Assembly: GCA_965205425.1 (NCBI GenBank)
Contig: CBDBGZ010000004.1
Location: 32,001 to 96,000, forward strand
From: Nitrosopumilus sp.
GTDB lineage: Archaea; Thermoproteota; Nitrososphaeria; Nitrososphaerales; Nitrosopumilaceae
Length of the DNA: 64,000 bases
Direction of reading: 5' to 3'
Shown here: positions 9,300 to 61,235 of the stretch, in pieces
How the letters are laid out: each line of letters starts with the position of its first letter
How positions within the stretch are numbered: the first letter of the stretch is position 1
The notes under the pieces: generated by a model
The model's input: the letters and a program-made list of their open reading frames with translations, nothing else
What the model was told of the DNA's origin: nothing
Database searches by the model: none
Made by a program: the position numbers and the translations under genes

Positions 9300-10440
9300 G
9301 AGACTTGGGCATAATTATTTACAAAAATAACTCTCAGTCATTTCCTAACAGCAAAGCATTCTCTTTACAGTTCTTGGATTTTCTGCTCCAATTATACAGT
9401 TGTAATATACTACAAGTTGATACACCAACACACAAACCAATACAAATGATTTCACGTTGTCAAATCCTTTCACATGTACAGTTCTAATGTTGAACGTATC
9501 TTTGAATATTTCAAATAAAGGTTCAATTGAGACTTTTCTTTGTGAGTACAACTCTTGACCTTGTACAGAATTATAAAAATCTGCAAGTTTGATTCGCTCT
9601 GGCGGTGTTGATGGATATATTTTGATAGGACAAATCAATCTCAAATGTCTCTCATCACTAAACTGATATAATGATTTATCATCATATGGCACATCACATA
9701 AAATATTTTCAACCAGTCCTGCAAGTGGTTTGACTAACGTTTCATACATTTTACCATCAGAAACATTTGCAGTTGAGACATCAGCAGACAATGGAACTAT
9801 CAGTTTTCCAGTACTGCAACTCATGTGCAGTTTGTATCCAAATATCCAACCCTTTGATTTTGAAAAACCCCATTTTGCATCAGTATCAATTCCTGGGATT
9901 GGTAGACGATTGTTCTTTATGTCTGATTTGTGCCATACTGGACCATCTGCTTTTAGCATTGAACTATCCCCTGATGCTGAAACATTTTCCACCAATTCCT
10001 CTGAGATGAATTTGTTGCCCATGGTACTAATCATGTCACTAATTGGTAGAAATTGAAATCGTCTGTCAATAGTTCTTCTGTCTGGAATTTGAGTTAATTT
10101 GCAAACCTTGAGCAGTTTGTCATTGGAAGGTTTGATTGAAAGGAAATAATGTAATGTATTGTTACTAGGAATTCTCATCCACAACTTTATGATGAACAAT
10201 TGCACCATCTGGATGGTTGGATACACGTATGGTCTACCCGATCTGAATACTTCCTCATACAAAGACAACATTCCCACCAAATGTAACACGCCAATAAGAA
10301 ATGATTCCGATAGAATCTTGCCAGGGATTTTCATTTGTTTTGACATTCCAATGAACGAAACATGATAAGATCCTTAGCTTTTTCTATTTGAATAATTTGA
10401 GAATTGACTCAAAAATTAGAATTAGTTATGCCCATGTCTC
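9300..10440 (-). mobile_element. DDE IS element (IS4/IS5/IS982-like), copy 1
   Basis: 15-bp inverted repeats GAGACTTGGGCATAA / TTATGCCCATGTCTC; paralog at 52371..53513; no target duplication at this copy. Confidence 0.88.
9345..10346 (-). CDS. DDE_Tnp_1-type transposase (333 aa)
   Basis: DSS, DTDAKWG..GWIFGYKLH, LCD..YD, RKVSIEPLF motifs. Confidence 0.88.
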   Translation of the reverse strand: MSKQMKIPGKILSESFLIGVLHLVGMLSLYEEVFRSGRPYVYPTIQMVQLFIIKLWMRIPSNNTLHYFLSIKPSNDKLLKVCKLTQIPDRRTIDRRFQFLPISDMISTMGNKFISEELVENVSASGDSSMLKADGPVWHKSDIKNNRLPIPGIDTDAKWGFSKSKGWIFGYKLHMSCSTGKLIVPLSADVSTANVSDGKMYETLVKPLAGLVENILCDVPYDDKSLYQFSDERHLRLICPIKIYPSTPPERIKLADFYNSVQGQELYSQRKVSIEPLFEIFKDTFNIRTVHVKGFDNVKSFVLVCVLVYQLVVYYNCIIGAENPRTVKRMLCC

Positions 10441-10755
10441 ATTTACTTCATATCCATGATCGCGTAAAAATTTTGTTGCAGAAATTATTCCAGTTCTTCT
10501 ATTACCATCCTCAAAAGGTTGTTCCCAAGCAATTTTACACATTAAATGAACTGCTTTTTCAATCAAATCTTCTATTTTATTTCCTGAATTTCCAACACTA
10601 TCTACATGTGGAATTACAGTGTCAATGGTACGTGTTGTGCCAATCCACACCTGTTTGCCAGTTAATCTCCTGTGTCTTTCTAGATTTAATAAAACAAGCT
10701 GGAACCAAAGTAAACTTTGTAAATAATTTGGGAAAGAGAATAGAAAAAGTGTCAA
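10441..10755 (-). pseudogene. Fic/Doc-like protein, C-terminus cut by the IS
   Basis: QPFEDGNRRTG resembles the Fic/Doc motif HxFxDGNxR with Gln in place of His; start uncertain. Confidence 0.6.
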
Positions 10756-10904
10756 TAGTTAATGAGGGTGATTGTATTAAAGTGACACCTATGGGATGGA
10801 TTGACAAGAAAATTTGGCGTGAAATCAATGATATTCTAAGATTACATCAGTTTAGTTGGTTATCTAATGGAAAGGATATTTGTTGGTTGACGATGATTTC
10901 ATAA
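10728..10904 (+). CDS. small hypothetical protein (probable real part of ORF 10404..10904)
   Basis: TTG start gives MGKRIEKVSIVNEGD...WLTMIS; the upstream part of the called ORF is antisense to the Fic-like gene and the IS. Confidence 0.5.
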   Translation: MGKRIEKVSIVNEGDCIKVTPMGWIDKKIWREINDILRLHQFSWLSNGKDICWLTMIS

Positions 10905-11005
10905 ATCAACACGATATTTGATGATTATCAAAAGAATCAAACTCAAAAATATCTCACAATAACCAAAACTATTATTAGTAAATTTAATTTAAAATTTTCA
11001 AGAAC

Positions 11006-11809
11006 ATGAAAAATCTAACGACAACAACAAAGACAATCTTATTTGCTTCTTTGATTGCAGCTCTAATTCTCCCATTTAGTGCAATGGACTTAGCTTTTGC
11101 AGATGTTTCTCCTGAAATAAAGGAGAAGGCAAAGAAAGGTCATGATACTTGGAAAGAACTCAAAGCAGAAGAAAAGAAAGTAACAAAAGATAGTAAAAAG
11201 ATAGACAAACTAGAAAAGAAATTTCAGAAATATGTCAAAGAACTTAACAAACATGGAATAGCAACACAGGAACAATGGGATGAAAACCCACAATATTGGA
11301 GAAACATGAACATGCCTTCAATACATGAACCAATTGTGGAAAATGATACACACAATACAATATTGGATGCTGATTTATTTTTCAATGTTGATAATAGTGA
11401 GATAGAACTCATGAGTCATGGTTGTGGTTGTGCTGGACAAGCTTTGAATGTAATTGCAGGTTTTGATTACTTATTGTGGGGATTTTGGCCAACTAGTGCA
11501 TATTCTGATGATGGTTGGAAAAAACTAACCTACAATGGAGATGTTGACACAACTGAAGTAGTTGATGACGAAATTCATTCAGAGATGACACCACATATTA
11601 CTGCTAATATAGATAGAGCAGGAATAGTCAACTATGGATACAATTATGAGGCAAGAGCATGGGGAAACCTTTTGGATTCCAATAATAGTTACAATTTGCA
11701 ATCCATCGCAGTTGCACCAAGTTCTTTATCCATAACTGAAGATGAATTAACAAACACTCCAGCTAGTACAACTATCAAATATACAGTCACTATTAGCAAT
11801 ATGAGTTAA
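11006..11809 (+). CDS. secreted pre-pro-type protein, family member 1
   Basis: Signal peptide ending LAFA; ELNKHGIATQEQWDENPQYW motif shared with 13605 and 62630; T-run after stop. Confidence 0.85.
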   Translation: MKNLTTTTKTILFASLIAALILPFSAMDLAFADVSPEIKEKAKKGHDTWKELKAEEKKVTKDSKKIDKLEKKFQKYVKELNKHGIATQEQWDENPQYWRNMNMPSIHEPIVENDTHNTILDADLFFNVDNSEIELMSHGCGCAGQALNVIAGFDYLLWGFWPTSAYSDDGWKKLTYNGDVDTTEVVDDEIHSEMTPHITANIDRAGIVNYGYNYEARAWGNLLDSNNSYNLQSIAVAPSSLSITEDELTNTPASTTIKYTVTISNMS

Positions 11810-11841
11810 CATACTATTTCTTTTTTTATAAAATAACGATC

Positions 11842-12345
11842 ATGTTTGATTACCATAAACCTCCCCAAGTATCTACCAATAAAGAAATATATGAAAAAGG
11901 AAAAACAGTAGGACTTTTTGACATTGATATTTTGTCTGAGCAAGGTGGTGGAAAAATTTGTACTTTTTGGAGAGGGTTTAGAAAATCAGATTTTGAAAAA
12001 TTCTCAAATCATCCAATTTTGGAAACTCTGAAAAAAATTTATTCCATATTAGAACCAAACCAAATCATAACAAAACCTAGATTCCGAGAATTTTTTGAAG
12101 ACAGTCCAGATTATTCATTAATTCACAAAATTCAATCAAAGAAACAACATCCCAAAGATACAAAATTTATGGCATATTTACAGCTAAAAATTATTCTTCA
12201 ACCTTATGACTTTGAAAAAGGAGAGTTATTTTTTGAATATAAGAACTATGACTTTCCTAATGGTATACAAAAAGCTCAAATGGATAAAGTATTGTATAGT
12301 CTTCTTATCAACTTATATTCAGCCTTGAAATATAAAGAGAAGTAA
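11842..12345 (+). CDS. hypothetical protein
   Basis: 167-aa ATG ORF, basic and aromatic, no signal peptide. Confidence 0.7.
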   Translation: MFDYHKPPQVSTNKEIYEKGKTVGLFDIDILSEQGGGKICTFWRGFRKSDFEKFSNHPILETLKKIYSILEPNQIITKPRFREFFEDSPDYSLIHKIQSKKQHPKDTKFMAYLQLKIILQPYDFEKGELFFEYKNYDFPNGIQKAQMDKVLYSLLINLYSALKYKEK

Positions 12346-12665
12346 CATACACAGTACAAGATTCATTTCACTTACATCAAGATTAGAATGGGATTCAGCA
12401 CCCGCCTATCTTTACACTAATTCAAAAATTGGGAAATTTATCAAAACAACCGCTAACTTTCCAGTGTATGACAACAGGAACTGGTAAGTTTACGATAGAT
12501 AATTCCTCTTGGAAAGTATCGGTAGATAGGTGTTAAGTTGGATTAACTATTCATTGACTGTAAATTCAAAAATACTCTTTGCAATCGTTTTTCATTTGAT
12601 TCTCTGGAATGCTTACTCATTGAAATACAAAATCAATTTTGCAGAAAAAGAGGAAACTGATCAGT

Positions 12666-13571
12666 TTACTTTTTGGCCAGTTTTGATACAAATGATTTGT
12701 CATTACGATGCCGGATATAGAATCCGCGTTTTTTAAGAATATTTTTAATTTTATCCATATTTTGTTGATCATCATTATCCTCAGAATTTTGATATACTGA
12801 CAGCAACATATCTTCAGTCAGATCAGCATATGCGCCATCATCATGGCCGTCGTCTGCCATTTGCTTATCATCAGAAACAATAACTGTATCAGGCATGGTT
12901 TCAAATTCCTCAGGTTTTACATCACCTGATTCATTTGAGGGTGGACCAACAGTGTGTTTCATCTCATCAGTACCAGTACCAGTGGCAGCAGTACCGGGTG
13001 AGAATTCTGCATCTCGTATCACATCACCATCATTATTATCATTAGGGAATTTACTTTGGGAATATCCTTTGAACATCCACATTTTAACGGTCTTTTTGTC
13101 ATCAGGATCATTAGGATTTGATGGATTTTGAATGGTTTGTTCTTCACATAAAAGATCATTTTTATTTTCAAATTTATGCAACTCCTCAATAATCTTTTTT
13201 TCATCATGCCTCCAAACACTATCTACGACATACTGCTCAGATACCTTGCCTCCTGCATTCATCAGTGTAGAAAATATCTCAGTTTGCAGTACGTTAAACT
13301 GTCTAATACGATCAGAGTCTACGCCAATTGATGTCATAATATCGGCATTCATAACAGTTACAGAATAATCTTCTGTATCAATATTTTTATTTGAAAATGC
13401 ATTTACAATCTTTTCCTTGTCACGATTTGAAAAAACAAAAAACCAAACAAAGAACCCTCGATCCTTACTCTTCTCATAGTTTGTGATGACTTGGCCCATG
13501 TGTTTGCCTGGCGCAGTCTCAACTTCAAGTGCAATGACTTTTTCGGACCAATTATTTGGATTATACGCCAC
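12666..13571 (-). CDS. probable 5'-truncated mobile-element protein with a PD-(D/E)xK-like IALEVET segment and acidic tail
   Basis: Begins abruptly at VAY..IALEVE; in-frame stop about 10 codons upstream; somewhat higher GC than flanks. Confidence 0.55.
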   Translation of the reverse strand: MAYNPNNWSEKVIALEVETAPGKHMGQVITNYEKSKDRGFFVWFFVFSNRDKEKIVNAFSNKNIDTEDYSVTVMNADIMTSIGVDSDRIRQFNVLQTEIFSTLMNAGGKVSEQYVVDSVWRHDEKKIIEELHKFENKNDLLCEEQTIQNPSNPNDPDDKKTVKMWMFKGYSQSKFPNDNNDGDVIRDAEFSPGTAATGTGTDEMKHTVGPPSNESGDVKPEEFETMPDTVIVSDDKQMADDGHDDGAYADLTEDMLLSVYQNSEDNDDQQNMDKIKNILKKRGFYIRHRNDKSFVSKLAKK

Positions 13572-14819: not shown

Positions 14820-16159
14820 GTATATGTTTAGATCCCAACTCACACATACTTTACAATCTCGTACAAAAGATTACAATTCCTCATATTCCATGTCATGATG
14901 CAACTCATCAGATTTCCAAACATTCTCATACCCTTCTCATTCCTAACACATCCTCGAATCTTTCTGTGAATGACGGATTCTCTCAACGCGTGTTCTGCTG
15001 CATTGTTTGTAGGTTCTATGTTTTCATACAGCAAAAATGTAAACAGATCGTATTTTGTATTATACAATTTGTTTAGGAATTTCTCCAGTTCCTTTTCATT
15101 GCAATGCTCAGAAACAATTCTTTCAAAGAGATTCACTGCAGCATCATGTGCTGTATCACTTGGTTGTATGCCTTTGATATCGTAAAATAATCTCTGCAAG
15201 GAATAATACAGTGATTTTGAATTGTCTGTTTCTAGTTTTTCTGATGTGTGTCTTGCTTCACGCAGTATGTGTGCCCAACACTTCTGTCTGATACCAAACA
15301 TATGGTATGGCATCCATCCATCACAGACTGCAACTCCTGCAAATGATGGGAAATGTTTTTGCAATACATTTGCACCCCTGCTTTTCTCAACTGTGATGCA
15401 ACAAGAGTTCTGATTTACCCCAGTCCATACCCATCCAGTTTTTCCATGTATGGAACATTTTGTCTCATCAAAATGAGCAGATTTTGAGTCGCAAATGTCC
15501 TGTCTGATTTGTTCTACCATAGGCTCCAGTGCAGATGATACATTGCACAAGCAGTTGTTGATGGTTCCTGCAGATATTTTCAAATTGTAAAAGGCTTGAA
15601 GCATCTTTGCAATGTTTCTTAGTGTAACTCTTGCAGACCACAAAGATAGAATAATTCCTGTAATGTGAAATCCAAGACATCCTTTCTTTGGAATGGGGCA
15701 ATCAGTAACTGTTGTATTTCCACAATTGTTGCAAAAGTAAGAAGGAATAACATGTTTTGTTATGGTAACTGGTTGCGGTTTTGGGATTTCTGCAATGATT
15801 CGAGTTTGTTGTGTAGTTTGAGTTATTTTTTTACTGCCACAGTTTGAGCATTTCTTTGAATCATGATGAATTGTTTTTGTGGGTTTGAAGCTGTGAGTTT
15901 TACCATCATGTCCTGGCTTTTGTCCTGGTTTGTTTGGATGAGTTGATTTTCGTTCTTTCTTTTGTTTTTTCCAGTGGAGAGAATCAGATGATGGTGGAGA
16001 ATTTGGGTTCTCATAGTAGGATAATTTCTTCTTTAGCTCTGTAATCTCTTTTTGTAATTTATCGCATTGTTTGCAATCATGAAAATCGCCCATTATTGTT
16101 GCAAAATTCTTCCCTGATCTAAACTATTCGATATATCTAGGCACGACCTAAACACACAC
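14820..16159 (-). mobile_element. IS66-family element type 2
   Basis: Imperfect terminal repeats GTATATGTTTAGAT / GTGTGTGTTTAGGT; flanked by pieces of two different IS5 elements; no target duplication. Confidence 0.9.
14840..16093 (-). CDS. IS66-family transposase (417 aa)
   Basis: NPNSPPSSD, PGQKPGHDG, CxxC pairs, HFDET, QKCWAHILRE, TNNAAEHALRESVIHRKI. Confidence 0.93.
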   Translation of the reverse strand: MGDFHDCKQCDKLQKEITELKKKLSYYENPNSPPSSDSLHWKKQKKERKSTHPNKPGQKPGHDGKTHSFKPTKTIHHDSKKCSNCGSKKITQTTQQTRIIAEIPKPQPVTITKHVIPSYFCNNCGNTTVTDCPIPKKGCLGFHITGIILSLWSARVTLRNIAKMLQAFYNLKISAGTINNCLCNVSSALEPMVEQIRQDICDSKSAHFDETKCSIHGKTGWVWTGVNQNSCCITVEKSRGANVLQKHFPSFAGVAVCDGWMPYHMFGIRQKCWAHILREARHTSEKLETDNSKSLYYSLQRLFYDIKGIQPSDTAHDAAVNLFERIVSEHCNEKELEKFLNKLYNTKYDLFTFLLYENIEPTNNAAEHALRESVIHRKIRGCVRNEKGMRMFGNLMSCIMTWNMRNCNLLYEIVKYV

Positions 16160-16275
16160 GTCCTGAGTTGTAACATTTCTTGATGTGACATCTCCGGACG
16201 TGGTGTATTTTGGTGATCTGATCATCTAAATACACCAGAACCATGATTGGTAATAGATGGAAAAGTGATCATATA

Positions 16276-16333
16276 TAGCGAAAAGATAAAGTTCGTGAAC
16301 TAAATAATTCCAAAACAAAAAACTTTTTGATCA
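16276..16333 (+). mobile_element. isolated IS630A left end
   Basis: TA followed by TAGCGAAAAGATAAAGTTCGTGAACTAAA...CTTTTTGATCA as at 36772; no matching right end found. Confidence 0.75.
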
Positions 16334-16566
16334 GTCTACACTGTTCAATCTTAGTGGTTCTGGTAAATTATAGTGATCTGTGTTACAAAACATGAAATAT
16401 GGATCTTCTCCAAATTCGATTTTAGAGAACTTGGTTATTTCTATATGAATAATTTACTCCAAATCATTCTCAGTAAACCCTGCTGTTAAATTTTGGTGAT
16501 CTCAGCCTAATTTTAGAATTTTCAGAATTATTTTTCAAATATTTTGGACATAAGATTCCAAATTTT

Positions 16567-16941: not shown

Positions 16942-17751
16942 ATTACGGCTAAAAAATATAATTCACCAATAACTTATCGATTAAAGGAAATTCCTGTAAA
17001 ACAGATTAAAGTATGGAAAGATGCACAGGCAAGAAAACTAGACCGCGAGGGAATTGCAGAACTTGCAAAGTCTATCAGAAATGATGGGTTACAAAATCCG
17101 CCGATGGTCCAGAAAAATGGTAAGAACTCTTATCTGTTAATGTCAGGCCAGAGAAGGCTTGCAGCTTTGAAAAGACTAGGTGCAAAAAAGATACCCGTAT
17201 TACTGTTAACAAATAGTACCAAATATGATTTAGAGGATGCAAAGGCAGCATCAGTTGTTGAGAATTTACACAGAAATCAAATGAACACTAAGGATATGAC
17301 TGCAGCTTGTGTATTTTTAACAGAATCTGTAGGAAAATCAAAGGCTGCAAAATCATTAGGGATTTCATCTCAGACCTTGAAAAAATACCTTGGATTTGCA
17401 GCAGTTCCAGAGAAACTAAAACGATTTGTTCCAAAAGAGTTGTCTTGTGATGATTGTACTAGATTATATCAAATTGTATCAAATGTACCAAAGGCCGTAT
17501 CCATTGCAGAGAAAATTATTCCGCTAGATCAGAAACTACGAAAGGAATACCTCAAGGCTTTAAGTAGATCTCCAAAGTCATCACATCTAAAATTACTAAA
17601 AAGAGCCAGAGCAGGATTACTCCAACAAAGAGTCACAATTGAATTAACTAAAGGAAATGCAAGGAAATTACGTAGTTTAGCTGGTAAAAAAGAGATTGAT
17701 GTAGATGAAATGGCTGATGAAATATTATCTAGTTATCTGAAAAGAAGATAA
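16942..17751 (+). CDS. ParB/Spo0J N-terminal-domain protein with HTH and C-terminal RHH-like segment (apparent ATT start)
   Basis: LAKSIRNDGLQNPPMV and SGQRRLAA ParB motifs extend 54 codons upstream of called ATG 17104; ENLHR. Confidence 0.85.
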   Translation: MTAKKYNSPITYRLKEIPVKQIKVWKDAQARKLDREGIAELAKSIRNDGLQNPPMVQKNGKNSYLLMSGQRRLAALKRLGAKKIPVLLLTNSTKYDLEDAKAASVVENLHRNQMNTKDMTAACVFLTESVGKSKAAKSLGISSQTLKKYLGFAAVPEKLKRFVPKELSCDDCTRLYQIVSNVPKAVSIAEKIIPLDQKLRKEYLKALSRSPKSSHLKLLKRARAGLLQQRVTIELTKGNARKLRSLAGKKEIDVDEMADEILSSYLKRR

Positions 17752-30113: not shown

Positions 30114-30162
30114 CTAATTTTGTAGGTTCTCAGATCTTAATAATTAACCGATGAATTAATCA

Positions 30163-33731: not shown

Positions 33732-34564
33732 CTATCTTGTTTGTTGACTCATCCAGACATAGTGTGGTGTATCCCAATTTGGAATATTTTTTGATACTCC
33801 TTTTTGCGTTTTTTTAAAACGGGTTTGTTCCTCTTTTGAGGCTGATTTATGATGTGTGGGACGTGGTTTTTTAGATGAAAATCCAATTCTGTGCAGCAAT
33901 TCACGCATTCCTCTTGCAGAGTATAGGGTGTTGTATTTTTTATTCACATGTGTAATTACCATTCTTGTACTCCACATGAATTGATTAAATCCAAACTTTT
34001 CTGGACCTGAAATCAGATCATTTCTTAATGATACTAGTTGTTTTTTATCTAAGAAACATCTAGAACCAGAATATTTCTTGCGGCGTGATGCAGATATTCC
34101 CTCTTCATCCATTCGATTTAGCCAGTAGGACAGAGTTGATGGTATGACATCCAGACTTGCACATATCACAGAATACGGAATATTTTGTTTTCTTAGTATT
34201 GCAACCTTTAATCTTATCTTTGCTTTTGCATTTTTTTCATTCTTGCATACTTTTCTTAAAAAATTAATGCTTGTACCTTTCATGAATTGATTTCCAGAGG
34301 AAACCTTGGATTGTCTTGTACTCTTTGACATGGTTTCATGAATTGATTCTACGATCTAGATCTTTTGGGTTAAAATACTTGACAGTTTATTCAAAATTTA
34401 TATGCCTAAACTATAAATGCCAATCCCATAATTAAAATCAGAACAAAACGTTTCATTTTTTCTAAAAAAGGAATCAAAAAAACTACAGATCTCTTAAATG
34501 AATTTAAAAAGAAATATCCTGATAGTTCATTTAATTAAAATTATTTTCAACTCAAACTTTAGAT

Positions 34565-36771: not shown

Positions 36772-37857
36772 TAGCGAAAAGATAAAGTTCGTGAACTAAA
36801 TTATTCCAAAACAAAAAACTTTTTGATCACTATGTATGGTAAAATTTGATGAACAAGTTAGAATCACTTGAAAGCAGCATACAAAAAAGAAAACTCCAAG
36901 GTTGCAGTAAGGATGCTTGCAGTGTTGATGATTCTAAAGGATGGAAAGGACATACAGTGCACTGCAAAGACATTACACCACTGCACAAGCTGGGTGAGAA
37001 AATGGACGAGTCGTTTTGAGATAGATGGCCTCTACGACCACCCAAGAAGTGGCAGGCCAAGAACAATCTCCCAGACTCGAATGGATGCTATCATGTCAAA
37101 AGCAATGCTAACTTTGTTTACCCCCATAATGTTGCAACAAAGTATCTTTTATTCCACTGGAGTAAAATTTCACATAACCCACATCAGAAAGATAATGCAC
37201 CAATACGGCATGTCTGCAAAAACTGCACAAAAATATCACATCAACCATGCAAGTGTATCTGCTGTGAGAAGCTGGCAACAACGCAGCAAAAAGAGAATTT
37301 CACGCCTAAAAAAGAAAGGATTTGTAATTGCAATGGCTGATGAAGCATTCTTTGTAAGGGATACAAAAACAGGAAAAAAGTACTGGTCACCAGTTGCAAA
37401 GAGAATATTTCTTCCATATACAGGACGACATGAGAGTCTGGCAGTGTATGGTACAATTACAGAAAATGGTAATCAACTATTCAGAGTTTATGACAAATTC
37501 AATGCTGTAACATTTGTAGAGTACCTAAAGGAATTGCATCAGAAATATGGCAAGATTGCAATCATTTTAGATAGAGCATCAGTTCACAAATCAAAGAAGG
37601 TAAAGGAATACCTTGCAAACAATAGAGATGTCAAACTAATCTGGTTGCCAAAGGGATCACCATACTTGAAGAACATGATAGAGCAGTGCTGGAAGATAAG
37701 CAAATATGCGTTGTTGGTTTCAGAGTATTATGCAATGTTTGCGATGATGAATGGTATAGTGTCAAAATATTTCAGAGTGACAAAATTCAAGCTTGATGTT
37801 GCAAATTATATCTTTAGAAATCCTGCAAAGATGTTTGCGAACTTTTGATCGTCGCTA
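36772..37857 (+). mobile_element. IS630-family element type A, full length
   Basis: TA on both sides; ends TAGCGAAAAG / GATCGTCGCTA. Confidence 0.93.
36868..37848 (+). CDS. IS630-family transposase (326 aa)
   Basis: PRSGRP, ADEAFF, LDRASVH, NMIEQCW. Confidence 0.9.
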   Translation: MKAAYKKENSKVAVRMLAVLMILKDGKDIQCTAKTLHHCTSWVRKWTSRFEIDGLYDHPRSGRPRTISQTRMDAIMSKAMLTLFTPIMLQQSIFYSTGVKFHITHIRKIMHQYGMSAKTAQKYHINHASVSAVRSWQQRSKKRISRLKKKGFVIAMADEAFFVRDTKTGKKYWSPVAKRIFLPYTGRHESLAVYGTITENGNQLFRVYDKFNAVTFVEYLKELHQKYGKIAIILDRASVHKSKKVKEYLANNRDVKLIWLPKGSPYLKNMIEQCWKISKYALLVSEYYAMFAMMNGIVSKYFRVTKFKLDVANYIFRNPAKMFANF

Positions 37858-39253
37858 TAAATGGCAGGGAATTTTGGAGAATTCTCTTCTCCTAAAATCT
37901 CCTCAACTATTCCCTGTAGCTGTCTGTATGCAGTACCAACGGTGTTTCGGAATAGTGCCATCACCATAAAGCATGTATTAGAATGGACAAACGGTGCTCC
38001 AACCTTGTTGTCATTTAGTTGTTTTACACCTTCAGACATTATTGTATTATCAAGATGCAACACATATACCTCGGAGCATAATTCTTTGCAATTTTTCAAA
38101 ACAAATAGCAATACTTTTTGATCAGTAGTTAGAAATAATTTCATGGACATCACAAATGACGAGTTACTCCAGGCCTACAAAAAAGAAAAGTACGGTAAGA
38201 AAAAGGAAAGACTGCATGCAATGTGTAAGATTAAAATCAATAAATCTACAATTGCTGAAACTGCCAACCAAATGTTTTGTACATATAATTCTGTAAGGAA
38301 TTGGCTTGATTCATTTGAAAAATACGGATTGGAGGACCCCCCCTCGTTCTGGCCGTCCGCCATTAATTTCACACAAAAAATTACAAAAAATAGAGCGTAC
38401 ATTTAAGAGAATTTCAGATGGAATGACTCCAAAGAAACTGGTACAATTCATATTTTACAGAACACGCATTACATATCATATCACTCATGTGCGTCGTTTG
38501 ATGCACAAATGGAATCTAAAACCAAAGGTTCCACAAAAACTACATGTGCGAGCAGCATCCAAGGATACATGCCGCAAGTGGAAAAACCGCATCATTTCAC
38601 GCATAGAAAAGGCAAAAAAGAAAGGTTTTACAGTATTCATCCAAGACGAGTCTGTATTTGTAGACGATGTACGTCTTGGCAAAAAATACTGGACAGATGT
38701 ACACCAAAGAATGATTGTACGTTGGAGAGGATCGCACCAAAGATTTTTGGTTTATGGAAATGATGATAATCAAAGTTTTTTTAGATCGTATGAAAAATTT
38801 AATTCAATTGCATTTATGGATTATTTGGAGGCAGCTCGTAGAAAATTCGGGAAAATATTTGTTATTGTTGATAGGGCACCGCAACACAAAGCTAATGATG
38901 TAAAAGAATATCTGCGTAAAAACGAAGATGTCAAACTGGCATATCTTCCAAGAGGTTCTCCACATTTGAGTATGATTGAAGAGATTTGGAGACAGTGCAA
39001 ACATGTTAATGTTGAATCAGAATTTTATGAATCTATTCATGAGATGAGGCATACAGTTATGGAATATTTTAGAACCCACAAATTTAATTTGAATATGTAT
39101 CAGTATTTTGCAAGAACAGTAAATTGAAAAGACTTATGATCTGGGGTATAGAACTTTCCACGTGAGATGTACTTTCTATCATCGTACTTTTTCTCAGACA
39201 CATGATATCTCTAACTTTTCAGATCCAAATCTTTTTCGGTTGTATTTTGAGCC
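37858..39253 (-). pseudogene. 5' remnant of an IS5/IS903-like element, split by IS630C and cut by IS630A
   Basis: Joining 39201-39149 to 38064-37858 gives VSEKKYDDRKYISRGKFYVL...VGAPF...YRQLQG...PKFPAIY, homologous to the N-terminus of the 42988 transposase; GGC end at 39253. Confidence 0.75.
38067..39148 (+). mobile_element. IS630-family element type C with frameshifted transposase (38143..39127)
   Basis: TA duplication; repeats TACCTCGGAGCATAATTCTTTGCAATTT / revcomp TACCCCAGATCATAAGTCTTTTCAATTT; frameshift at a C7 run before PRSGRPP. Confidence 0.88.
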
Positions 39254-40660: not shown

Positions 40661-41806
40661 TAGTTAAGGCATTAAATATTTGAATAATTTCACAACTCGA
40701 ACGTCTCCATTATCTAGTCTCTTCTGCATGTGTTTTCTCATCTCAGAACCATTTGCAAAGAATGTGTTGGCATTACCGTTTTTCTCTTCTCTCCACTGTA
40801 CCTCAATTGGATTGAGTTCTGGAGTGTATGCAGGAAAATATCTTATGATTACATTTCTTTTTGATTTCTTGAGAAATTCTTTTACTCTGACACTTTTGTG
40901 GTATGATGCATTGTCTGCAAATAATAACAGTTTCTTGCCAAATTGTTTCTGCAGTGACTCTAAAAAATCAAGAAATGAGTCTGTGTTTGATTTATCATAG
41001 AACCTACAGTAAAACACATCATCATCCCCCAATGCACCAAAGGATTGAAACTTTTCTCGAGTGTAATTAATTGGCGTGGTAATATTATTGCCTGCAAGAT
41101 ACCATCCACGCTTTATGTTAGGTGCTATCTTGTTTGTTGACTCATCCAGACATAGTGTGGTGTATCCCAACCTGGAATATCTGTTAACTGTCCTTTTTGC
41201 GTTTTTTTAAAACGGGTTTGTTCCTCTTTTGAGGCTGATTTATGATGTGTGGGACGTGGTTTTTTAGATGAGAATCCGATACGGTGTAGTAATTCTCGCA
41301 TTCCTCTTGCAGAGTATAGCGCGTTGTATTTTTTATTCACATGTGTAATTACCATTCTTGTACTCCACATGAATTGGCTGAATCCAAACTTTTCTGGACC
41401 CGAAATCAGATCATTCCTTAATGATACTAGCTGTTTTTCATTTAGAAAACATCTAGAACCAGAATATTTCTTGCGGTAAGATGCAGATATTCCCTCTCGG
41501 TTCATTTGGTTTAACCAATTACTAAGAGTTGATGGTATGACATCAAGACTGATGCATATTTGAGAATATCTCATGTCTTGTTTGCGTAAAATTGCAGCCT
41601 TTAGTCTTATTTTGGCTCTGGCATTTGTTTCTTTTTTGCATACTTTTCTCAAAAAATTAATGCTTGTACCTTTCATGAATTGATTTCCAGAGGAAACCTT
41701 GGATTGTCTTGTACTCTTTGACATGGTTTCATGAATTGATTCTACGATCTAGATCTTTTGGGTTAAAATACTTGACAGTTTATTCAGAATTTATATGCCT
41801 AAACTA
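40661..41806 (-). mobile_element. IS630B copy 2, intact two-ORF transposase (41125..41724 and 40664..41170) with probable -1 frameshift
   Basis: TA duplication; 1146 bp; TTTAAAAAAAC slippery run; LDES, ADNASYH, PELNPIE. Confidence 0.93.
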
Positions 41807-42908: not shown

Positions 42909-43917
42909 GCTGTGTTTCCCAACATGACTAGTTGATCCAATTAATTTCATCACCCAAGCTTTAGATCAGAATATTCTGTATTATTCCATGAACAGAAACT
43001 GGAAAAATTACAACAAAACACTAGTTAGACGTGGAGAAATCATGTTGTCCTTTGACGCAATGGAATCATGGAGTATGGAACTAAAAGAGATGAATCACAA
43101 AAAGGAAGGTCATCGATTTGTCTATCCTGAATCCTTCATGGAGGCACTAGGATACTGTCATCTCTATTTGCATCTTCCATTCAGACAAACAGAAGGTCTG
43201 ATAAAATCACACCTCCAATCCAAAACAAAGACTCCCACATATTCTGCCATTTGGAAACGTGTCAACAAACTTGACATCAAGATGAATCCAAAACTAGGAA
43301 AAGACATTGTCATTGCAATAGACTCAACTGGAATCAAGGTTGCAAACAGAGGTGAGTGGATGAGACAGAAATGGCAGAAGAGAAGAGGATTTCTTAAAAT
43401 TCATGTGGCAGTAGATGTGAAATCTAAACAGATCACAGGGATTGATATTACAGATGACAAGTCACATGATTCAAAACATTTCATATCGCTAGTTGAGCAA
43501 TCAAAACAGTTTGGCAATGTCACTAAAACTTTGGCTGATGGTGCATATGATACAAAGGATAATTTTTCATATCTGTATTATGATAATGATATTCTACCTG
43601 CAATTAAAACAAGAAAAAACTCATCAGTTGTAACTGATTGTTATCCTCGGAGAAAGTCCGTTTTGGCACAATTGTATAACTTGGATCTATGGAAGCTCAG
43701 CGTAAGCTATGGGGATAGATGGATTGTAGAGGGAGTATTCTCTGTATTCAAAAGAATATTTGGAGAGCATGTGACATCGCACAAGAGAGAAAACATGATT
43801 CATGAATTGAAAATGAAAGTTTGTCTGTACAATAAAATGATTGCAATGCAATAGAATCAGAAATGATTTCAAAGCATCAAAGAGTGTTGATGGTTATTTG
43901 GGGTTGGGAAACAAAGT
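42909..43917 (+). mobile_element. IS5-family element (IS5-a)
   Basis: Repeats GCTGTGTTTCCCAAC / GTTGGGAAACAAAGT; AAT on both sides. Confidence 0.92.
42988..43854 (+). CDS. IS5-family (IS903-like) transposase
   Basis: NWKNYN..L..RG, IDSTGIKV..GEW, FLKIHVAVD, ADGAYD, RWIVEGVFS. Confidence 0.92.
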   Translation: MNRNWKNYNKTLVRRGEIMLSFDAMESWSMELKEMNHKKEGHRFVYPESFMEALGYCHLYLHLPFRQTEGLIKSHLQSKTKTPTYSAIWKRVNKLDIKMNPKLGKDIVIAIDSTGIKVANRGEWMRQKWQKRRGFLKIHVAVDVKSKQITGIDITDDKSHDSKHFISLVEQSKQFGNVTKTLADGAYDTKDNFSYLYYDNDILPAIKTRKNSSVVTDCYPRRKSVLAQLYNLDLWKLSVSYGDRWIVEGVFSVFKRIFGEHVTSHKRENMIHELKMKVCLYNKMIAMQ

Positions 43918-52370: not shown

Positions 52371-53513
52371 GAGACTTGGGCATAATGATTTACAAAAATA
52401 ATTTCCAATATTTCTCTAGCAGCACAACATTCTCTTTACAGTTCTTGGATTCTCTGCTCCAATTGCACAGTTGTAGTAAACTCTCAACTGGTACACAAGA
52501 ACACAAACCAACACAAATGATTTGACATTGTGCAATCCCTTTACAGGCAATACTCTGATGTCAAAAATATCTTTGAGATACTCAAATAGAGGTTCAATTG
52601 AGACTTTTCTATCTGCATACAGCTCTTGCCCAATTACAGAATTGTAAAACTCTACGAGTTTTATTCTCTCTGGCGGCGTATGCGGGTATTGTTTTATTGG
52701 AGTAATTAGTCTCAGATTTTTCTTGTTGCTAAATTGATGCAGTGAACCATTGTCATATGCAGGATCACATAAGATATTCTCAACAAATCCTGCAAGAGAT
52801 TCAGTTAGTATTTCATACATCTTGCCGTCATGAACATTTGCAGTTGAGACATCAGCAGATAGTGGAACAACCAGTTTGCCAGTACTACAACTCATATGCA
52901 GTTTGTACCCAAATACCCAACCCTTTGATTTTGAAAAACCCCATTTTGCATCTGTGTCAATTCCTGAGATTGGAATTCTATTCTTTTTCATATCTGATTT
53001 GTGCCATACTGGACCTGCAGCTTTTAGCATGGAACTATCCACTGATGCAGATATGTCATCGACTAGTTTCTCTGATACAAACAGACTTTTCATATTACTG
53101 ATTATATCACCAATTGGCAGAACTTGGAATCGTCTGTCAATGGTTCTTCTGTTTGGGATTTGAGCTAGTCTGCAAACCTTGAGCAATTTATCATTGATAC
53201 CTTTAGTCAAAAGAAAATAATGTAATGTATTGTTACTAGGAATTCTCATCCATGACTTTATGATGAATAGTTGCACCATTAGAATTGTAGAGTATACGTA
53301 CGGTCTACCGGGTTTTCAGCATCTCTTCATACAAAGACAACATTCCCACCAAATGTAACACGCCAATAAGAAATGATTCCGATAGAATCTTGCCTAGGGA
53401 TTTTCATTTGTTTTGACATTACAATGAACAAAACATGATAAGATCCTTAGCTTTTTCTATTTGAATAATTTGAGAATTGACTCAAAAATTAGAATTAGTT
53501 ATGCCCATGTCTC
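52371..53513 (-). mobile_element. DDE IS (IS4/IS5/IS982-like), copy 2, 5' frameshifted transposase (52416..53419)
   Basis: Same terminal repeats as 9300..10440; 8-bp duplication AATTAATT. Confidence 0.9.
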
Positions 53514-53624: not shown

Positions 53625-54434
53625 ATTACGGCTAAAAAATACAATTCACCAATAACTTATCGATTAAAGGAAATTCCTGTAAAATACATCAAAGTTTGGC
53701 GTGATGCTCAGGCAAGAAAACTAGATAAAGAGGGAATAGCAGAACTTGCAAAGTCAATACAAAATGACGGATTACAAAATCCTCCAATGGTCCAAAAGGA
53801 TGGAAAGAACTCTTACTTGCTCATGTCAGGCCAGAGAAGGCTTGCAGCACTGAAAAGACTAGGTGCAAAAAAGATACCCGTATTACTGTTAACTAATAGT
53901 ACCAAATATGATTTAGAGGATGCAAAAGCAGCATCAGTTGTAGAGAATCTACATAGAAATAAAATGAACACTAGAGATATGACGGCAGCTTGTGTGTTTT
54001 TAACAGAATCTGTAGGTAAATCAAAGGCTGCAAAGTCATTGGGAATATCAATACAAACTTTGAAAAAATACCTTGGATTTGCAGCAGTTCCAGACAAACT
54101 AAGAACATTTGTTCCAAAAGAGTTGTCAAGGGATGACTGTGTGAAATTGTACAGGGCAGTTCCAAATGTTACAAAAGCAGTATCTGTTGCAGAGAAGATA
54201 ATCCCATTGGATCAGAAATTAAGAAAAGAGTATCTCAAATCACTTGCACGTTCCCCAAAATCATCACATCTCAAGTTGCTAAAAAAAGTAAAGAGTGGGT
54301 TATTGCAACAGCGAGTTACTATACTATTGAATAAGGGAAATGCCAGGAAGTTACATAGTTTGGCTATGAAGAAAGATGTAGAAGTTACTGAGATGGCAGA
54401 TGAAATATTGTCAAGTTATTTGAAAAGACGTTAA
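53625..54434 (+). CDS. ParB-like protein, paralog of 16942..17751 (apparent ATT start)
   Basis: Same length, motifs and upstream region; many synonymous differences. Confidence 0.85.
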   Translation: MTAKKYNSPITYRLKEIPVKYIKVWRDAQARKLDKEGIAELAKSIQNDGLQNPPMVQKDGKNSYLLMSGQRRLAALKRLGAKKIPVLLLTNSTKYDLEDAKAASVVENLHRNKMNTRDMTAACVFLTESVGKSKAAKSLGISIQTLKKYLGFAAVPDKLRTFVPKELSRDDCVKLYRAVPNVTKAVSVAEKIIPLDQKLRKEYLKSLARSPKSSHLKLLKKVKSGLLQQRVTILLNKGNARKLHSLAMKKDVEVTEMADEILSSYLKRR

Positions 54435-56842: not shown

Positions 56843-57078
56843 TTCAGAATAGCAGTTACCAAGACAACATTCCATGATGAAATGATGTATGTCCTCTGAA
56901 TTGTATATGGCATTACTTTTTTGTGAGCAAGAAAACGACAACGTTGTGCATATTATTTTAGCAATATTTGCAAATGCTTGAGTTGTTGAATTTCTAATGT
57001 GTGCAAAATCAAGATTATGATTCACATTTGATGGAGCAGTACACCTCCTTCAAGCTTTTTCTATCCAAATTTATTGTT
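56812..57078 (-). mobile_element. ISH3-like (IS4 superfamily) 5' remnant; its left end continues at about 58229-58275 beyond IS630B
   Basis: YNSEDIHHFIMECCLGNCYSE resembles an ISH3 N-terminus; upstream GATAGAAAAAGCTTGA..CTCCATCAAAT also found at about 42117-42156; boundaries approximate. Confidence 0.5.
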
Positions 57079-57080
57079 TA

Positions 57081-58226
57081 TAGTTAAGGCATTAAATATT
57101 TGAATATTTTAACAACTCTAACATCACCATTATCTAGTCTCTTCTGCATGTGTTTTCTCATCTCAGTTCCATTTGCAAAGAATGTGTTGGCATTGCCATT
57201 TTTTTCTTCTCTCCACTGTACCTCAATTGGATTGAGTTCTGGAGTGTATGCAGGAAAATATCTGATGATTACTTTATTTTTTGGTGCTTTGAGAAATTCT
57301 TTTACTCTGAGACTTTTGTGGTATGATGCATTATCTGCAAACAATAACAATTTCTTACCAAATTGTTTCTGCAAGGATTTTAAGAAATCAAGAAATGAGT
57401 CTGTGTTTGATTTATCATAGAACCTACAAAAAAATACACCGTCATCCCCCAATGCACCAAATGATTGAAACTTTTCTCGAGTATAGTTGATTTTGGTTTG
57501 TGTATTTTTTCCTTTTAGATACCAGCCTTTTTTGATATTTGGAGCTATCTTGTTTGTTGACTCATCCAGACATAATGTGGTGTATCCCAATTTGGAATAT
57601 TTTTTGATACTCCTTTTTGCGTTTTTTTAAAACGGGTTTGTTCCTCTTTTGAGGCTGATTTGTGATGAGTCTGTCTTGGTTTTTTAGATGAGAATCCGAT
57701 ACGGTGTAGTAATTCACGCATTCCTCTTGCAGAGTATAGGGTGTTGTATTTTTTATTCACATGTGTAATTACCATTCTTGTACTCCACATGAATTGGTTA
57801 AATCCAAACTTTTCTGGACCTGAAATTAGATCATTTCTTAATGACACTAGCTGTTTTTCATTTAGAAAACATCTAGAACCAGAATATTTCTTGCGGTGTG
57901 ATGCAGATATTCCCTCTTCATCCATTCGATTTAGCCAGTAGGACAGAGTTGATGGTATGATATCAAGACTGATGCATATTTGAGAATATCTCATGTCTTG
58001 TTTGCGTAAAATTGCAGTCTTTAGTCTTATCTTTGCTTTTGCATTTTTTTCATTCTTGCATGTTTTTCTTAAAAAATTAATGCTTGTACCTTTCATGAAT
58101 TGATTCCCAGAGGAAACCTTGGATTGTCTTGTACTCTTTGACATGGTTTCATGAATTGATTCTACGATCTAGATCTTTTGGGTTAAAATACTTGACAGTT
58201 TATTCAGAATTTATATGCCTAAACTA
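57081..58226 (-). mobile_element. IS630B copy 3, intact two-ORF transposase (57545..58144 and 57084..57590)
   Basis: TA duplication; 1146 bp; same slippery site. Confidence 0.93.
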
Positions 58227-58551
58227 TAACTGATGAAATAATGGTTAGTTTCTGATCTAAATTGGATTACTTTCCCAAGTACTGTTTTAGAAAGTTAGGA
58301 CATGATGAAATATCCCAAATAATAAAAAACCAAGTAAAGGACATAAATAACAAATACAATCTCAAGGGAACCGTCAAATCAACAATAATAAATGATGAAT
58401 CAACAATTATCTCTTGTAACATAGTTGGCAAAACTAGACAATATGAAAATAAAAAAGCAGATAATGCATATGAATAAAATACCATCAATGTTCAAAAAAT
58501 AATGGAGATTGAAAATTACAAAATGACATTAAAAATTAAGGATAAATTACA

Positions 58552-58764
58552 ATGACCTGCAAGGGAACGTGCCAAAAGTACAAATCAACTGCAAAGCCAA
58601 GTGGCGGATTATATCGTAACGGAATAAAAAAATGTCAGATATGTGCAATTTACATCAATTGGGAAGGATCCCACTGTACCTGGTGCGGATACATGTTGAG
58701 ATCAAAACCACGCAACAGACATTTCAAAGCAAAACTTACAGGAGATGTTCCAAGAATTGAATAA
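58552..58764 (+). CDS. small basic Cys-rich protein
   Basis: CxGxC..KKCxxC..WEG..CxxC..LRSKP. Confidence 0.75.
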   Translation: MTCKGTCQKYKSTAKPSGGLYRNGIKKCQICAIYINWEGSHCTWCGYMLRSKPRNRHFKAKLTGDVPRIE

Positions 58765-58803
58765 ATTACTAATTACAAAAAATATGGAATGTGATAAAAA
58801 ATA

Positions 58804-59010
58804 ATGAATGTTTGTAGCGGGGTGTGCTCAAAGTATGTCTCAAGAAAAACCAAAGACGGCCTAAACTATGGGTACAACAGAAAGAGGTGCAGTATATGCG
58901 AGGTATTTCTCACCTGGAAGGGTATTCGTTGTCCCTGCTGTTCCACAAGATTGAGAAACAAGCCAAAAAACAGACTTGCAAAGCAGAGACTGCAAAGGAG
59001 AAAACAGTGA
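58804..59010 (+). CDS. small basic Cys-rich protein, tandem paralog of 58552
   Basis: CxGxC..KRCxxC..WKG..CPCC..LRNKP. Confidence 0.75.
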   Translation: MNVCSGVCSKYVSRKTKDGLNYGYNRKRCSICEVFLTWKGIRCPCCSTRLRNKPKNRLAKQRLQRRKQ

Positions 59011-59195
59011 TTAGAAAATACACGGCAACACATGATTCCCTGCGAAGAAGAATAACGCATGGTTCATCAATTGTATGTAACACTTGTGGGCAAGATATTA
59101 TAGTCGGGGATGCAGTAGTTACAAAAACAGGTGCAAGATTGGGGAAATTTATCAGACATGAGCAATGTGCCAGGAGAATCGGACTAGTTGACTGA
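59007..59195 (+). CDS. small zinc-finger protein CxxC..GD..HxxC
   Basis: GTGA overlap with upstream stop; CNTCGQDIIVGD...RHEQC. Confidence 0.65.
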   Translation: MIRKYTATHDSLRRRITHGSSIVCNTCGQDIIVGDAVVTKTGARLGKFIRHEQCARRIGLVD

Positions 59196-59329
59196 TTGTA
59201 CCATCACCGATGAATTAAACGGTGTTTTGCACAATAATTCTTTTCAGGAAGATACGATCACATGTTTGACATGGCTGAGAAAAGACATGATCTGCTTTGC
59301 TAAATAAAAACACAAATCAAAGCTATTAA

Positions 59330-59535
59330 ATGACAAAAACACTTCCTTTATCACAAAACCAATTCCTAATTATAATTGAAATCATGACATTTGTGTTGAG
59401 TTTGGTTTATCTTCTGCAGAATGATTCTGATGAAATGACGTTGCTGAAAATAATTGCAATATTTGGTGTCATAATTCCCGGATTTTTTGGAATGTTGGTT
59501 ATGGCTACGGGGATTTTCTTTTCTTTACAGAGATA
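59330..59535 (+). pseudogene. membrane protein cut by IS630A
   Basis: Two hydrophobic segments; ORF reads into the IS end (YSEKIKFVN). Confidence 0.6.
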
Positions 59536-60264
59536 TAGCGAAAAGATAAAGTTCGTGAACTAAATTATTCCAAAACAAAAAACTTTTTGATCACTATGTA
59601 TGGTAAAATTTGATGAACAAGTTAGAATCACTTGAAAGCAGCATACAAAAAAGAAAACTCCAAGGTTGCAGTAAGGATGCTTGCAGTGTTGATGATTCTA
59701 AAGGATGGAAAGGACATATAGTGCACTGCAAAGACATTACACCACTGCACAAGCTGGGTGAGAAAATGGACGAGTCGTTTTGAGATAGATGGCCTCTACG
59801 ACCACCCAAGAAGTGGCAGGCCAAGAACAATCTCCCAGACTCGAATGGATGCTATCATGTCAAAAGCAATGCTAACTTTGTTTACCCCCATAATGTTGCA
59901 ACAAAGTATCTTTTATTCCACTGGAGTAAAATTTCACATAACCCACATCAGAAAGATAATGCACCAATACGGCATGTCTGCAAAAACTGCACAAAAATAT
60001 CACATCAACCATGCAAGTATATCTGCTGTGAGAAGCTGGCAACAACGCATCAAAAAGAGAATTTCACGCCTAAAAAAGAAAGGATTTGTCATTGCAATGG
60101 CTGATGAAGCATTCTTTGTAAGGGATACAAAAACAGGAAAAAAGTACTGGTCACCAGTTGCCAAGAGAATATTTCTTCCATATACAGGACGACATGAGAG
60201 TCTGGCAGTGTATGGTACAATTACAGAAAATGGCAATCAACTATTCAGAGTTTATGACAAATTC

Positions 60265-61235
60265 GGCCTTGTAGAAATCATAATAAAATAACAAAATCTA
60301 ATTTTCTAATCCTGTAAGCATTGTATGCAATTAACCTGTACAACATCCCATTGTCCTGAGTTGTAGCATTTCTTGATGTGACATCTCCTGACATTATCTG
60401 TTTGATCACAAAAAAGATTGTTTCAGATTTGTTTCTCTGATGGTACAATTGTACAGGAAAGTTCCTCTTCATCTCCTTTCTGTGAATTCCGCTGGTTCTG
60501 TAAATTGGAACTGTTCTATATCGAGTTGGAATTATTGCAGCTGTGTTGATCTGTTCTGCACCAACATGGTTATTCTCATCATCAAAACCCATGTCACCTA
60601 ACACAATATCAACTGGAACAATATTGTTGGTTTTGTACAACAATGGCAGAAAATCAGGATTATCATGTTGCATGTTGTGGTGTGTCATGACACAGCAAAC
60701 AAGCTGTGTATTCATGTCAGCACAAACAACAACTTTTAGGAAATTCCTGCGTAACTGTACTCTTTTTGTATAATAGTATGATGCTGTACTGTAACTGAAT
60801 CCGCTACCATCAATTCCAGCTAGAACCAGTCTGACTTTTTTGTACAAAATGAATTCCTGCAACATTTTATGTAACAGATTTCCTTCCAGTCTTGCAGCTG
60901 CCTTTTGTAGTGTGGTGTAATGTGGAATGGTAGACAAACCAAGATATTCCTGAATTCCTACACATTCTTCTAAAAATTCTGTAAATCTTCTATAACTCTT
61001 TGATTCGTACTGTCGTATTGCCAAGAGTATGAGATGTGTCCAAACAGAATAGATATGATTTGATTTTGGATGTAAGAACCTGGGAATTCTGCATCTGGTG
61101 ATTATATTGAGTAGTGTTTTGCACATTTTGACGTATGATGAGACCATACTGTAATCTGCAAATACAATCCTAATGGATCTAAATTAGCTAAAATGTGTCA
61201 CAATTGGGTTAAAATCAGATGGTTTCTACAAGGCC
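60265..61235 (-). mobile_element. IS5-family element (IS5-b), complete
   Basis: Repeats GGCCTTGTAGAAA / TTTCTACAAGGCC; 9-bp duplication GACAAATTC. Confidence 0.94.
60278..61147 (-). CDS. IS5-family transposase (289 aa)
   Basis: IPHYTTLQK, GIDGSGF..ASYYY, LGDMGFD, YHQRNKSETIF. Confidence 0.9.
   Translation of the reverse strand: MVSSYVKMCKTLLNIITRCRIPRFLHPKSNHIYSVWTHLILLAIRQYESKSYRRFTEFLEECVGIQEYLGLSTIPHYTTLQKAAARLEGNLLHKMLQEFILYKKVRLVLAGIDGSGFSYSTASYYYTKRVQLRRNFLKVVVCADMNTQLVCCVMTHHNMQHDNPDFLPLLYKTNNIVPVDIVLGDMGFDDENNHVGAEQINTAAIIPTRYRTVPIYRTSGIHRKEMKRNFPVQLYHQRNKSETIFFVIKQIMSGDVTSRNATTQDNGMLYRLIAYNAYRIRKLDFVILL

Follow-up and report, generated by a model that had tools for sequence, protein, structure and literature searches.

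GATC in the TATA-box position of transposase promoters in a Nitrosopumilus genome: candidate methylation-sensitive transposition in an archaeon

That DNA methylation can govern transposition is textbook knowledge for Escherichia coli, where Dam methylation of GATC sites in the transposase promoter and in the ends of the insertion sequences (IS) IS10 and IS50 ties transposition to hemimethylated DNA; Dam control of IS10 (Tn10) was reportedly described by Roberts, Hoopes, McClure and Kleckner in 1985. For IS50 (Tn5), the available part of PMC4265352 describes a transposase promoter, T1, with two overlapping dam sites, at which methylation lowers transposase transcription and about 8-fold more transcript is made when the dam sites are mutated. 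Here we follow up a sequence-only reading of a 64,000-nt stretch of DNA from Nitrosopumilus sp. (G000:C4:32001-96000, hereafter the window), which had proposed that several distinct IS types of this archaeon carry GATC in the TATA-box position of the transposase promoter and that their transposition is gated by methylation. Retention of GATC at this place suggests that transposition may depend on whether the DNA is methylated, as it does for IS10 in E. coli, and by analogy these IS promoters are probably an archaeal counterpart of the Dam-controlled promoters of IS10 and IS50.

The genome that contains the window (2.196 Mb in 9 contigs, 33% G+C) encodes amoA and amoC, and repeats make up 27% of it in a self-comparison. 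Genes were called with a purpose-made simple caller, which gave 2420 genes in total, the 1661 single-copy ones serving as the 'host' set. A home-made typing that combined protein clustering, repeat-boundary mapping and Pfam resolved 15 IS types, i.e. IS630A, IS630B, IS630C, IS5-a, IS5-b, IS5-c (1041 bp, 17 copies, outside the window), an IS4/982-like type, a related 26-copy IS4-like type, IS66-1, IS66-2, a DDE_Tnp_4 type, two IS481 types, IS1595 and IS110. Pfam transposase domains scored above cut-off in the IS630, IS5/IS4 (DDE_Tnp_1), IS66 and DDE_Tnp_4 elements.

The enrichment of GATC among these IS types at a fixed promoter-proximal position is beyond chance. When all 256 four-mers were scanned blindly for presence at -38..-18 from the first transposase codon, GATC ranked first, with 9 of the 15 IS types carrying it versus 5.0% of the 1661 host genes, or 5.3% of the 1008 host genes with at least 50 nt of non-coding DNA upstream (p 7e-9 to 1.2e-8). 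Merging IS630A with IS630C and IS5-a with IS5-b leaves 7/13 (p 1e-6), and counting once per Pfam-level group still gives 5/8 (p 2e-4). AGCT ranked third (4/15 IS types versus about 4% of host genes, p ~2e-3), which alone fails correction for 256 tests. Within 11 IS seeds, the 5' leaders hold 11.1 GATC per kb versus 1.6/kb in the remaining element, a 7-fold difference, and genome-wide GATC is the most depleted of the palindromic four-mers (6368 observed versus 9994 expected from trimers, ratio 0.64). GATC is not equally frequent in host promoters: it starts at -32..-20 in 51 of the 1661 host genes, shows no peak there and, if it deviates at all, falls at -33..-27; no common function emerged among the 20 of these 51 genes that were annotated. 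The enrichment is both IS-specific and position-specific. The composite AGCT-N2-8-GATC occurs 271 times in the genome versus about 200 expected, with all of the excess in repeats (113 occurrences), and in unique DNA (158) it is not enriched.

Since host TATA boxes start at about -30, the IS GATC sites fall in the TATA register. In the aggregate of host genes, TTTAWA starts number 10–27 per position at -33..-27, with a peak at -30, versus about 3–4 elsewhere, which agrees with the TATA position that had been claimed from a few host genes. TAAATA, TTAAAT and TTTATA are the enriched host TATA words, the box of the TTTAAATA type starts at about -30, and an A-rich stretch lies at -35..-32; positional word counts were used here, a TATA weight matrix from our own expectation–maximization run having returned only a weak TTyAAA motif. 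With an 8-bp box at about -30..-23, most host mRNAs would therefore be leaderless or nearly so. TTTAGA is nearly missing from the TATA position of host genes, and in IS66-2 the word TTTAGATC occupies -30..-23 of the transposase ATG, i.e. the exact host TATA register.

In the window, every GATC that had been placed upstream of the transposase starts of IS4/982, IS66-2, IS630A, IS630B, IS630C, IS5-a and IS5-b is present, and so are the three AGCT sites. The IS4/982-like element, with the box AGCTAAGGATC, has two copies on the minus strand: copy a (10346..10380) carries AGCT at 10376-79 and GATC at 10369-72 (-26..-23) upstream of ATG 10346, and copy b (53419..53452), which is frameshifted downstream, has an AGCTaagGATC box upstream of ATG 53419, with GATC 53442-45 again at -26..-23. 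The 26-copy IS4-like type, a relative of IS4/982 outside the window (C8:50422-51618; C-numbers denote contigs), has AGCT at the same place and TGATG replacing GATC. In IS66-2, a single-open-reading-frame (single-ORF) IS66 type (16093..16125, minus strand), GATC 16116-19 lies at -26..-23 of ATG 16093, and the same box is found in a 76%-identical, 7-copy subtype. The DNA adjoining this element (16116-16516) holds 8 GATC in 400 nt, together with a left-end fragment of IS630A that has a CTTTTTGATCA box (GATC 16329) and other repeat debris. The three IS630B copies, all on the minus strand, contain GATCtaGATC without exception: copy 1 (34331..34366) has AAAAGATCTAGATC upstream of ATG 34331, with GATC at 34353-56 and 34359-62, and the same double site stands at 41746-49 and 41752-55 in copy 2 (41724..41759) and at 58166-69 and 58172-75 in copy 3 (58144..58179). 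Genome-wide, 28 of the 31 members of the IS630B family have the box.

IS630A and IS630C, both on the plus strand, have in common the box CTTTTTGATCA. It takes the form ACTTTTTGATCA in IS630C (38110..38145), with GATC 38120-23 at -23..-20 of ATG 38143, and AAAAAACTTTTTGATCA in IS630A (36815..36851), where GATC 36825-28 does lie at -24..-21 of ATG 36849, as had been stated, although this ATG is out of frame with the main ORF. The latter starts at TTG 36868, the frames being separated by an extra A common to most copies; it follows codon 8 (CTTGAAAGC versus CTTGAAGC) in the window copy (36849-36880) and 7 others, only C9:1150030-1151028 being in frame, and could be decay or a programmed shift. 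The right ends of both elements contain GATC, as the sequence-only reading had noticed: in IS630A the right terminal inverted repeat has it at 37847..37850 (plus strand), overlapping the stop codon, the left repeat reading GATA at the corresponding point, and in IS630C it stands at 39138..39141 (plus strand), the left repeat being without GATC at the matching place. IS5-a (42957..42990, plus strand) has AGCTTTAGATC, with GATC 42964-67 at -24..-21 of ATG 42988 and AGCT at 42957-60, and IS5-b (61145..61189, minus strand) has AGCTAATTTAGATC, with GATC 61176-79 at -32..-29 of ATG 61147 and AGCT at 61186-89; the IS5-c box is ATATTGATC and that of the DDE_Tnp_4 type GATCCAAAGCT. What had been taken for an IS903-like remnant does have GATC at 39222-25, but it is read on the minus strand (39199..39236), with CGAAAAAGATTTGGATC upstream of GTG 39201 (GATC at -24..-21) and an IS5-type N-terminus. 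In IS66-1 (2396..2403, minus strand), GATC 2400-03 was correctly reported at -5..-2 of GTG 2398; it is outside the TATA position and the element was counted as a non-carrier. The site given as a host exception (30133..30136) exists as well; it falls in the gap between two divergently oriented genes, one for an aminotransferase (TTG 30113, minus strand), the other starting at ATG 30163. A ParB_N-domain family (215-268 aa), not a recognised transposase, has 9 genes genome-wide, including 17104-17751 and 53787-54434 of the window.

Conservation of the box in relatives is clearest for IS630. A search with the IS630A protein and then with an alignment of nine IS630-type proteins gave 46 loci from other genomes of the class; the start could be resolved for 35 of them (alignment from residue 20 or earlier, ATG at most 30 nt from the expected place), and removal of loci with upstream regions at least 75% identical left 28 non-redundant ones. 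GATC is present at -40..-15 in 21 of these 28 and at -28..-18 in 18, against an expectation of 9.7% from the GATC density of the same loci (p 3e-16, a value that is too small because the relatives are kin). Protein identity ranges over 24-100%, and GATC is kept while the flanks vary. Anchored on GATC, the 21 relatives give the consensus a..tc.aA.CgAAAa..TT.TTGATCAg, i.e. a BRE-like C(G/A)AAA (BRE, B recognition element) followed by 8 bp that often read TATnTnGA, so that GATC spans TATA positions 7-8 and two bases beyond; as a putative BRE/TATA unit, CgAAAa..TT.TTGATC coincides in position with the A-rich stretch and the TTTAWATA of host genes. Many relatives have GATC in tandem, e.g. GATCgGATC and GATCaccaGATC. 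Of the seven relatives that lack GATC, two belong to the sister family and three are distant, with 21-22% identity. A right terminal inverted repeat with GATC 10-15 bp from the tip, and a left one with other letters, is seen in IS630A, IS630C and three relatives and was not seen in IS630B. The description of GATC use as convergent is only partly right: it applies between IS families, and within IS630 the box looks inherited and conserved. For IS5-a, a looser start rule applied by eye finds GATC in 6 of 12 relatives, two more having it at -45 and -42. Taking the first ATG of the frame, 10 of 25 IS66 relatives have it (p 2.6e-4), with GATCTAAAT, the reverse complement of ATTTAGATC, as a recurrent word. 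Four plasmid-borne IS630 homologues (three haloarchaeal, one from Anoxybacillus), too few to weigh, had GATC at -40..-15 in 0/4 and in one case at -7..-4.

A Dam-like methyltransferase, which the proposal calls for, is encoded by a full-length gene outside the window (C9:1127527-1128384). Its product matches PF02086 (E 1.8e-66 over positions 1-253) and TIGR00571 (E 4.5e-88, 295 bits versus a cut-off of 115); among solved structures DpnM (2dpm, E 5.6e-68) comes first and E. coli Dam (E 1.7e-35) second, and FDPPY, the DPPY catalytic motif, is present in the alignment to DpnM. The gene adjoins amoA, with an amoC-like gene two genes beyond (C9:1127527-1129137). No DpnII-type nuclease was found in the genome, so that the methylase looks like an orphan; for the same reason, and since avoidance would remove sites and not fix them at one position, restriction avoidance was rejected as a cause. 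Homologues (E <=1e-20) occur in 113 of 121 genomes of the family, in 91 of the 94 of good quality and in all 27 genera, with identity tracking relatedness, and in a class-wide sample the gene was found in 108/108 Nitrosopumilaceae, in 10/10 genomes of the sister family (40-47% identity) and in 0/32 of ten other families (the unpublished genomes G077, G092 and G093 are part of these counts). IS630-type elements were found only in the two Dam-bearing families, with 0/32 genomes for the remaining ten families of this class, and outside Nitrosopumilaceae an IS630 search of the other families in a phylum sample gave weak partial matches in 3 of 250 genomes.

For AGCT, a candidate enzyme is encoded by a second methylase gene, of N4/N6 type (C9:985802-986587), which 37 of 61 family genomes retain. 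Methylation of GATC and AGCT in marine Nitrosopumilaceae, which the sequence-only reading had mentioned, is indeed in print. According to a review (PMC11033074), Ca. Nitrosomarinus catalina is methylated at >99% of sites both for GATC (N6-methyladenine, m6A) and for AGCT (N4-methylcytosine, m4C); methylases for GATC and AGCT are also listed for Nitrosoarchaeum BD3, M.Nca01II/M.NspBD3II being assigned to GATC m6A and M.Nca01I/M.NspBD3I to AGCT m4C (the text prints the Nca m4C motif as AGTC, the table gives M.Nca01I as AGCT). In PMC8919816, both metagenome-assembled genomes (MAGs) of marine Thaumarchaeota have 82-91% of their AGCT sites modified, and for GATC the proportion ranges over 19-99% among archaeal MAGs, barring two euryarchaeal exceptions; one MAG has predicted methylases for GATC and AGCT, with both modifications detected. 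The genome studied here also contains a C5 cytosine methylase gene in three identical copies (C8:11738-12772, C8:207910-208944 and C9:9906-10940), which sit in a larger repeated block with genes for 271, 353, 536 and 750 aa of no known function; this block is probably a multi-copy integrated element.

How might these components work together? Of the explanations considered, we favour transposase promoters that are methylation-sensitive through a GATC in or abutting the TATA box, in the manner of Dam control of IS10 and IS50, though at no better than even odds. On such a scheme, the transposase genes of most IS types would be read from a core promoter with GATC in or next to the TATA box and often AGCT on the BRE side, and an orphan Dam/DpnM-type enzyme would keep GATC methylated on both strands. 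Full methylation would then set promoter strength, most likely at a low level, and after passage of the replication fork, or upon entry of the element as unmethylated DNA, the site would transiently be hemi- or unmethylated, which would change transposase synthesis. At the same moment, end use of IS630-type elements would be altered by way of the GATC in their right terminal repeat. Transposition would thereby be tied to replication or transfer, as it is for IS10 and IS50 in E. coli. What favours methylation is that unrelated transposons share only the host transcription machinery and host methylation, and that the four conserved letters are a palindromic methylation site in promoter register, with AGCT as a second methylated motif and one element end also carrying GATC. 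Of the earlier proposal, the enrichment, the register, the recurrence in unrelated IS families and the methyltransferase all stand; its further step, control of the binding of TATA-binding protein (TBP), would be one of several possible modes of action.

Several points weigh against methylation-sensitive promoters. Six of the 15 types are non-carriers, i.e. IS481-1 (32 copies), IS481-2, IS1595, IS110, IS66-1 and the 26-copy IS4-like type; for both IS481 types and IS1595 this absence had already been noted from the window. The 26-copy type has TTTAGATC directly after the left terminal repeat, at -80..-73 from the ATG, and across IS types copy number shows no trend with GATC presence, the ranges overlapping. 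Several IS leaders contain AT-rich, TATA-like words 15-25 nt further upstream, so that GATC could instead sit between TATA box and start site or at the start site itself. TBP reads the minor groove of DNA, and the N6-methyl group of m6A and the N4-methyl group of m4C sit in the major groove; a direct block of TBP by methylation is therefore not expected, and the target may just as well be transcription factor B (TFB), at the BRE and the downstream edge of the box, the bendability of the DNA (by which TBP might still sense the mark) or some dedicated reader protein. Among relatives, the kinship of the IS630 loci means that their p-value overstates independence, the two IS630 relatives retained from the sister family (f3) lack GATC despite a 40-47% identical Dam homologue, GATC is found in only 3 of 7 IS5-a relatives under the strict start rule (p 0.035, a weaker support), and 0 of 7 IS66 relatives, whose N-termini are uncertain, have it when the nearest ATG is taken. 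Finally, that the Dam-type enzyme is specific for GATC is predicted from homology and from its relatives.

A host parallel may extend the picture beyond transposons. The densest GATC cluster in unique DNA, outside the window, lies in a 193-nt spacer between the gene for the small replication factor C (RFC) subunit and the GINS-MCM genes (C9:1174340-1174531). This array packs its 7 GATC into about 95 nt (Poisson 1.9e-8, or ~4e-4 allowing for all windows), contains the palindromes GATCAATTGATC and GATCGATC, and places a GATC at -27..-24 of GINS in the word GATCTAAAT, within GATCTAAATC. At least three GATC are present in the 150 nt upstream of GINS in 27 of the 29 family genomes examined, mostly 5-8, and their positions are fixed across family genomes with GINS identity down to 43%. 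It is conceivable, if rather doubtful, that the family possesses a replication-coupled epigenetic core-promoter switch, the first in Archaea, in which the Dam-type enzyme and, in many lineages, the AGCT m4C methylase would mark the BRE/TATA region of GINS-MCM, and into which at least four unrelated IS superfamilies and one IS630 end would independently have plugged themselves.

The same array can, however, be read without methylation in the leading role. The GATC box could be the operator of a host DNA-binding regulator that also binds the GINS-MCM array, the IS elements mimicking it and following the cell cycle, with methylation incidental or secondary. The fixed array with its two palindromes and the GATCTAAAT word at -27..-24 would suit such a protein, as would the occurrence of this word in IS66 relatives and of its reverse complement ATTTAGATC in the IS5 and IS66 elements here, and the tandem GATCnGATC pairs of IS630 promoters resemble dimer sites. 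Yet no such protein is known or was identified here, the IS boxes mostly consist of one or two GATC and form no array, the flanks outside GATC are not conserved between IS families, and co-enrichment of AGCT fits methylation better than the site of a single protein; overall we think this regulator unlikely. Distinctly less probable appears a variant core promoter, TTTAGATC or TTTTGATC, that serves an extra TBP or TFB paralogue and merely includes GATC in its preferred sequence. Paralogues are at hand, with 4-member TBP and 6-member TFB gene families at >=60% identity (e.g. C9:126917-127522 and C8:59717-60649), the IS630 consensus forms a complete unit, BRE-like and then TATA-like, that keeps the host register, and the near absence of TTTAGA from host TATA positions would be in line with a separate promoter class. 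This explanation has to contend with conserved letters that are exactly the palindromic methylation site next to a T-rich part that varies freely, with GATC that can be 5' of the TATA-like word (IS66 relatives, GINS), with the GATC that IS630 also keeps in one of its terminal repeats, outside any promoter, and with the want of a common function among the annotated GATC-bearing host genes.

Nor need the host be involved at all if GATC were part of a subterminal site for the element's own transposase, used in autoregulation or synapsis. By eye, the IS630A box AACTTTTTGATCAC does resemble the inner right terminal repeat AACTTTTGATCGTC, and more weakly so in IS630C and one relative, but the same letters stand at the same distance in IS5, IS4/982, IS66 and DDE_Tnp_4 elements with unrelated transposases, and the left terminal repeats, which must bind transposase, are without GATC, which makes this a quite improbable account. 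Least probable, to the point of being already near refuted, is that the box has no function and reflects chance together with the shared ancestry of related IS copies. The box is common by descent to IS630A and IS630C, perhaps also to IS5-a and IS5-b, gene starts and IS typing were home-made, and GATC was picked after the data had been seen; it nevertheless came first among 256 four-mers in a blind scan, survived the merging of related types and the Pfam-level count, and was kept by 21 of 28 IS630 relatives while the flanking bases changed.

If transposase promoters are indeed methylation-sensitive, a function would emerge for the orphan GATC methylase, which is retained by almost every member of the Nitrosopumilaceae, and the tolerance of very high IS loads in some Nitrosopumilus genomes would become easier to explain. 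Such promoters would also offer a simple in vitro handle on the effect of methylated bases on the pre-initiation complex of archaea and, by extension, on its eukaryote-like counterpart. In the literature that we searched, neither methylation-linked transposition in Archaea nor an action of DNA methylation at BRE/TATA promoters is reported. Methylation, GATC and promoters do not come up in a term search of a survey of archaeal IS elements from 2026 (PMC13343696).

Compared with the described systems, the elements would resemble IS10, in which GATC is found in the transposase core promoter and in just one of the ends that transposase binds, and whose host supplies a GATC adenine methylase of the orphan kind; a link to hemimethylated, newly replicated DNA is likewise proposed here. 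To IS50, as far as the source consulted describes it, the parallel lies in the tandem promoter GATCs, which recall GATCtaGATC in IS630B and GATCnGATC in its relatives; there, however, the promoter is bacterial and the effect (~8-fold) was measured, whereas here an effect is inferred. Clusters of GATC are also a feature of E. coli oriC and the dnaA promoter (Dam/SeqA), and Caulobacter has CcrM-controlled cell-cycle promoters. With these systems the Nitrosopumilaceae would share an orphan methylase that is part of the core genome and a clustering of its sites upstream of replication genes, in this case GINS-MCM; the array, which we considered as a possible origin, is ~420 kb from the only orc1/cdc6 gene found. 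To our knowledge, SeqA or MutH homologues are not to be expected in archaea, and no search was made for them here. In contrast to IS10, which is read from a sigma-70 -10 box, the elements described here, known from their sequence alone, would use an archaeal BRE/TATA promoter served by TBP and TFB, several unrelated IS families have the site at once, and AGCT (m4C) is often found on the BRE side. The class of mechanism is already known from bacteria; the archaeal promoter context, the recurrence in multiple IS families and the AGCT partner are new.

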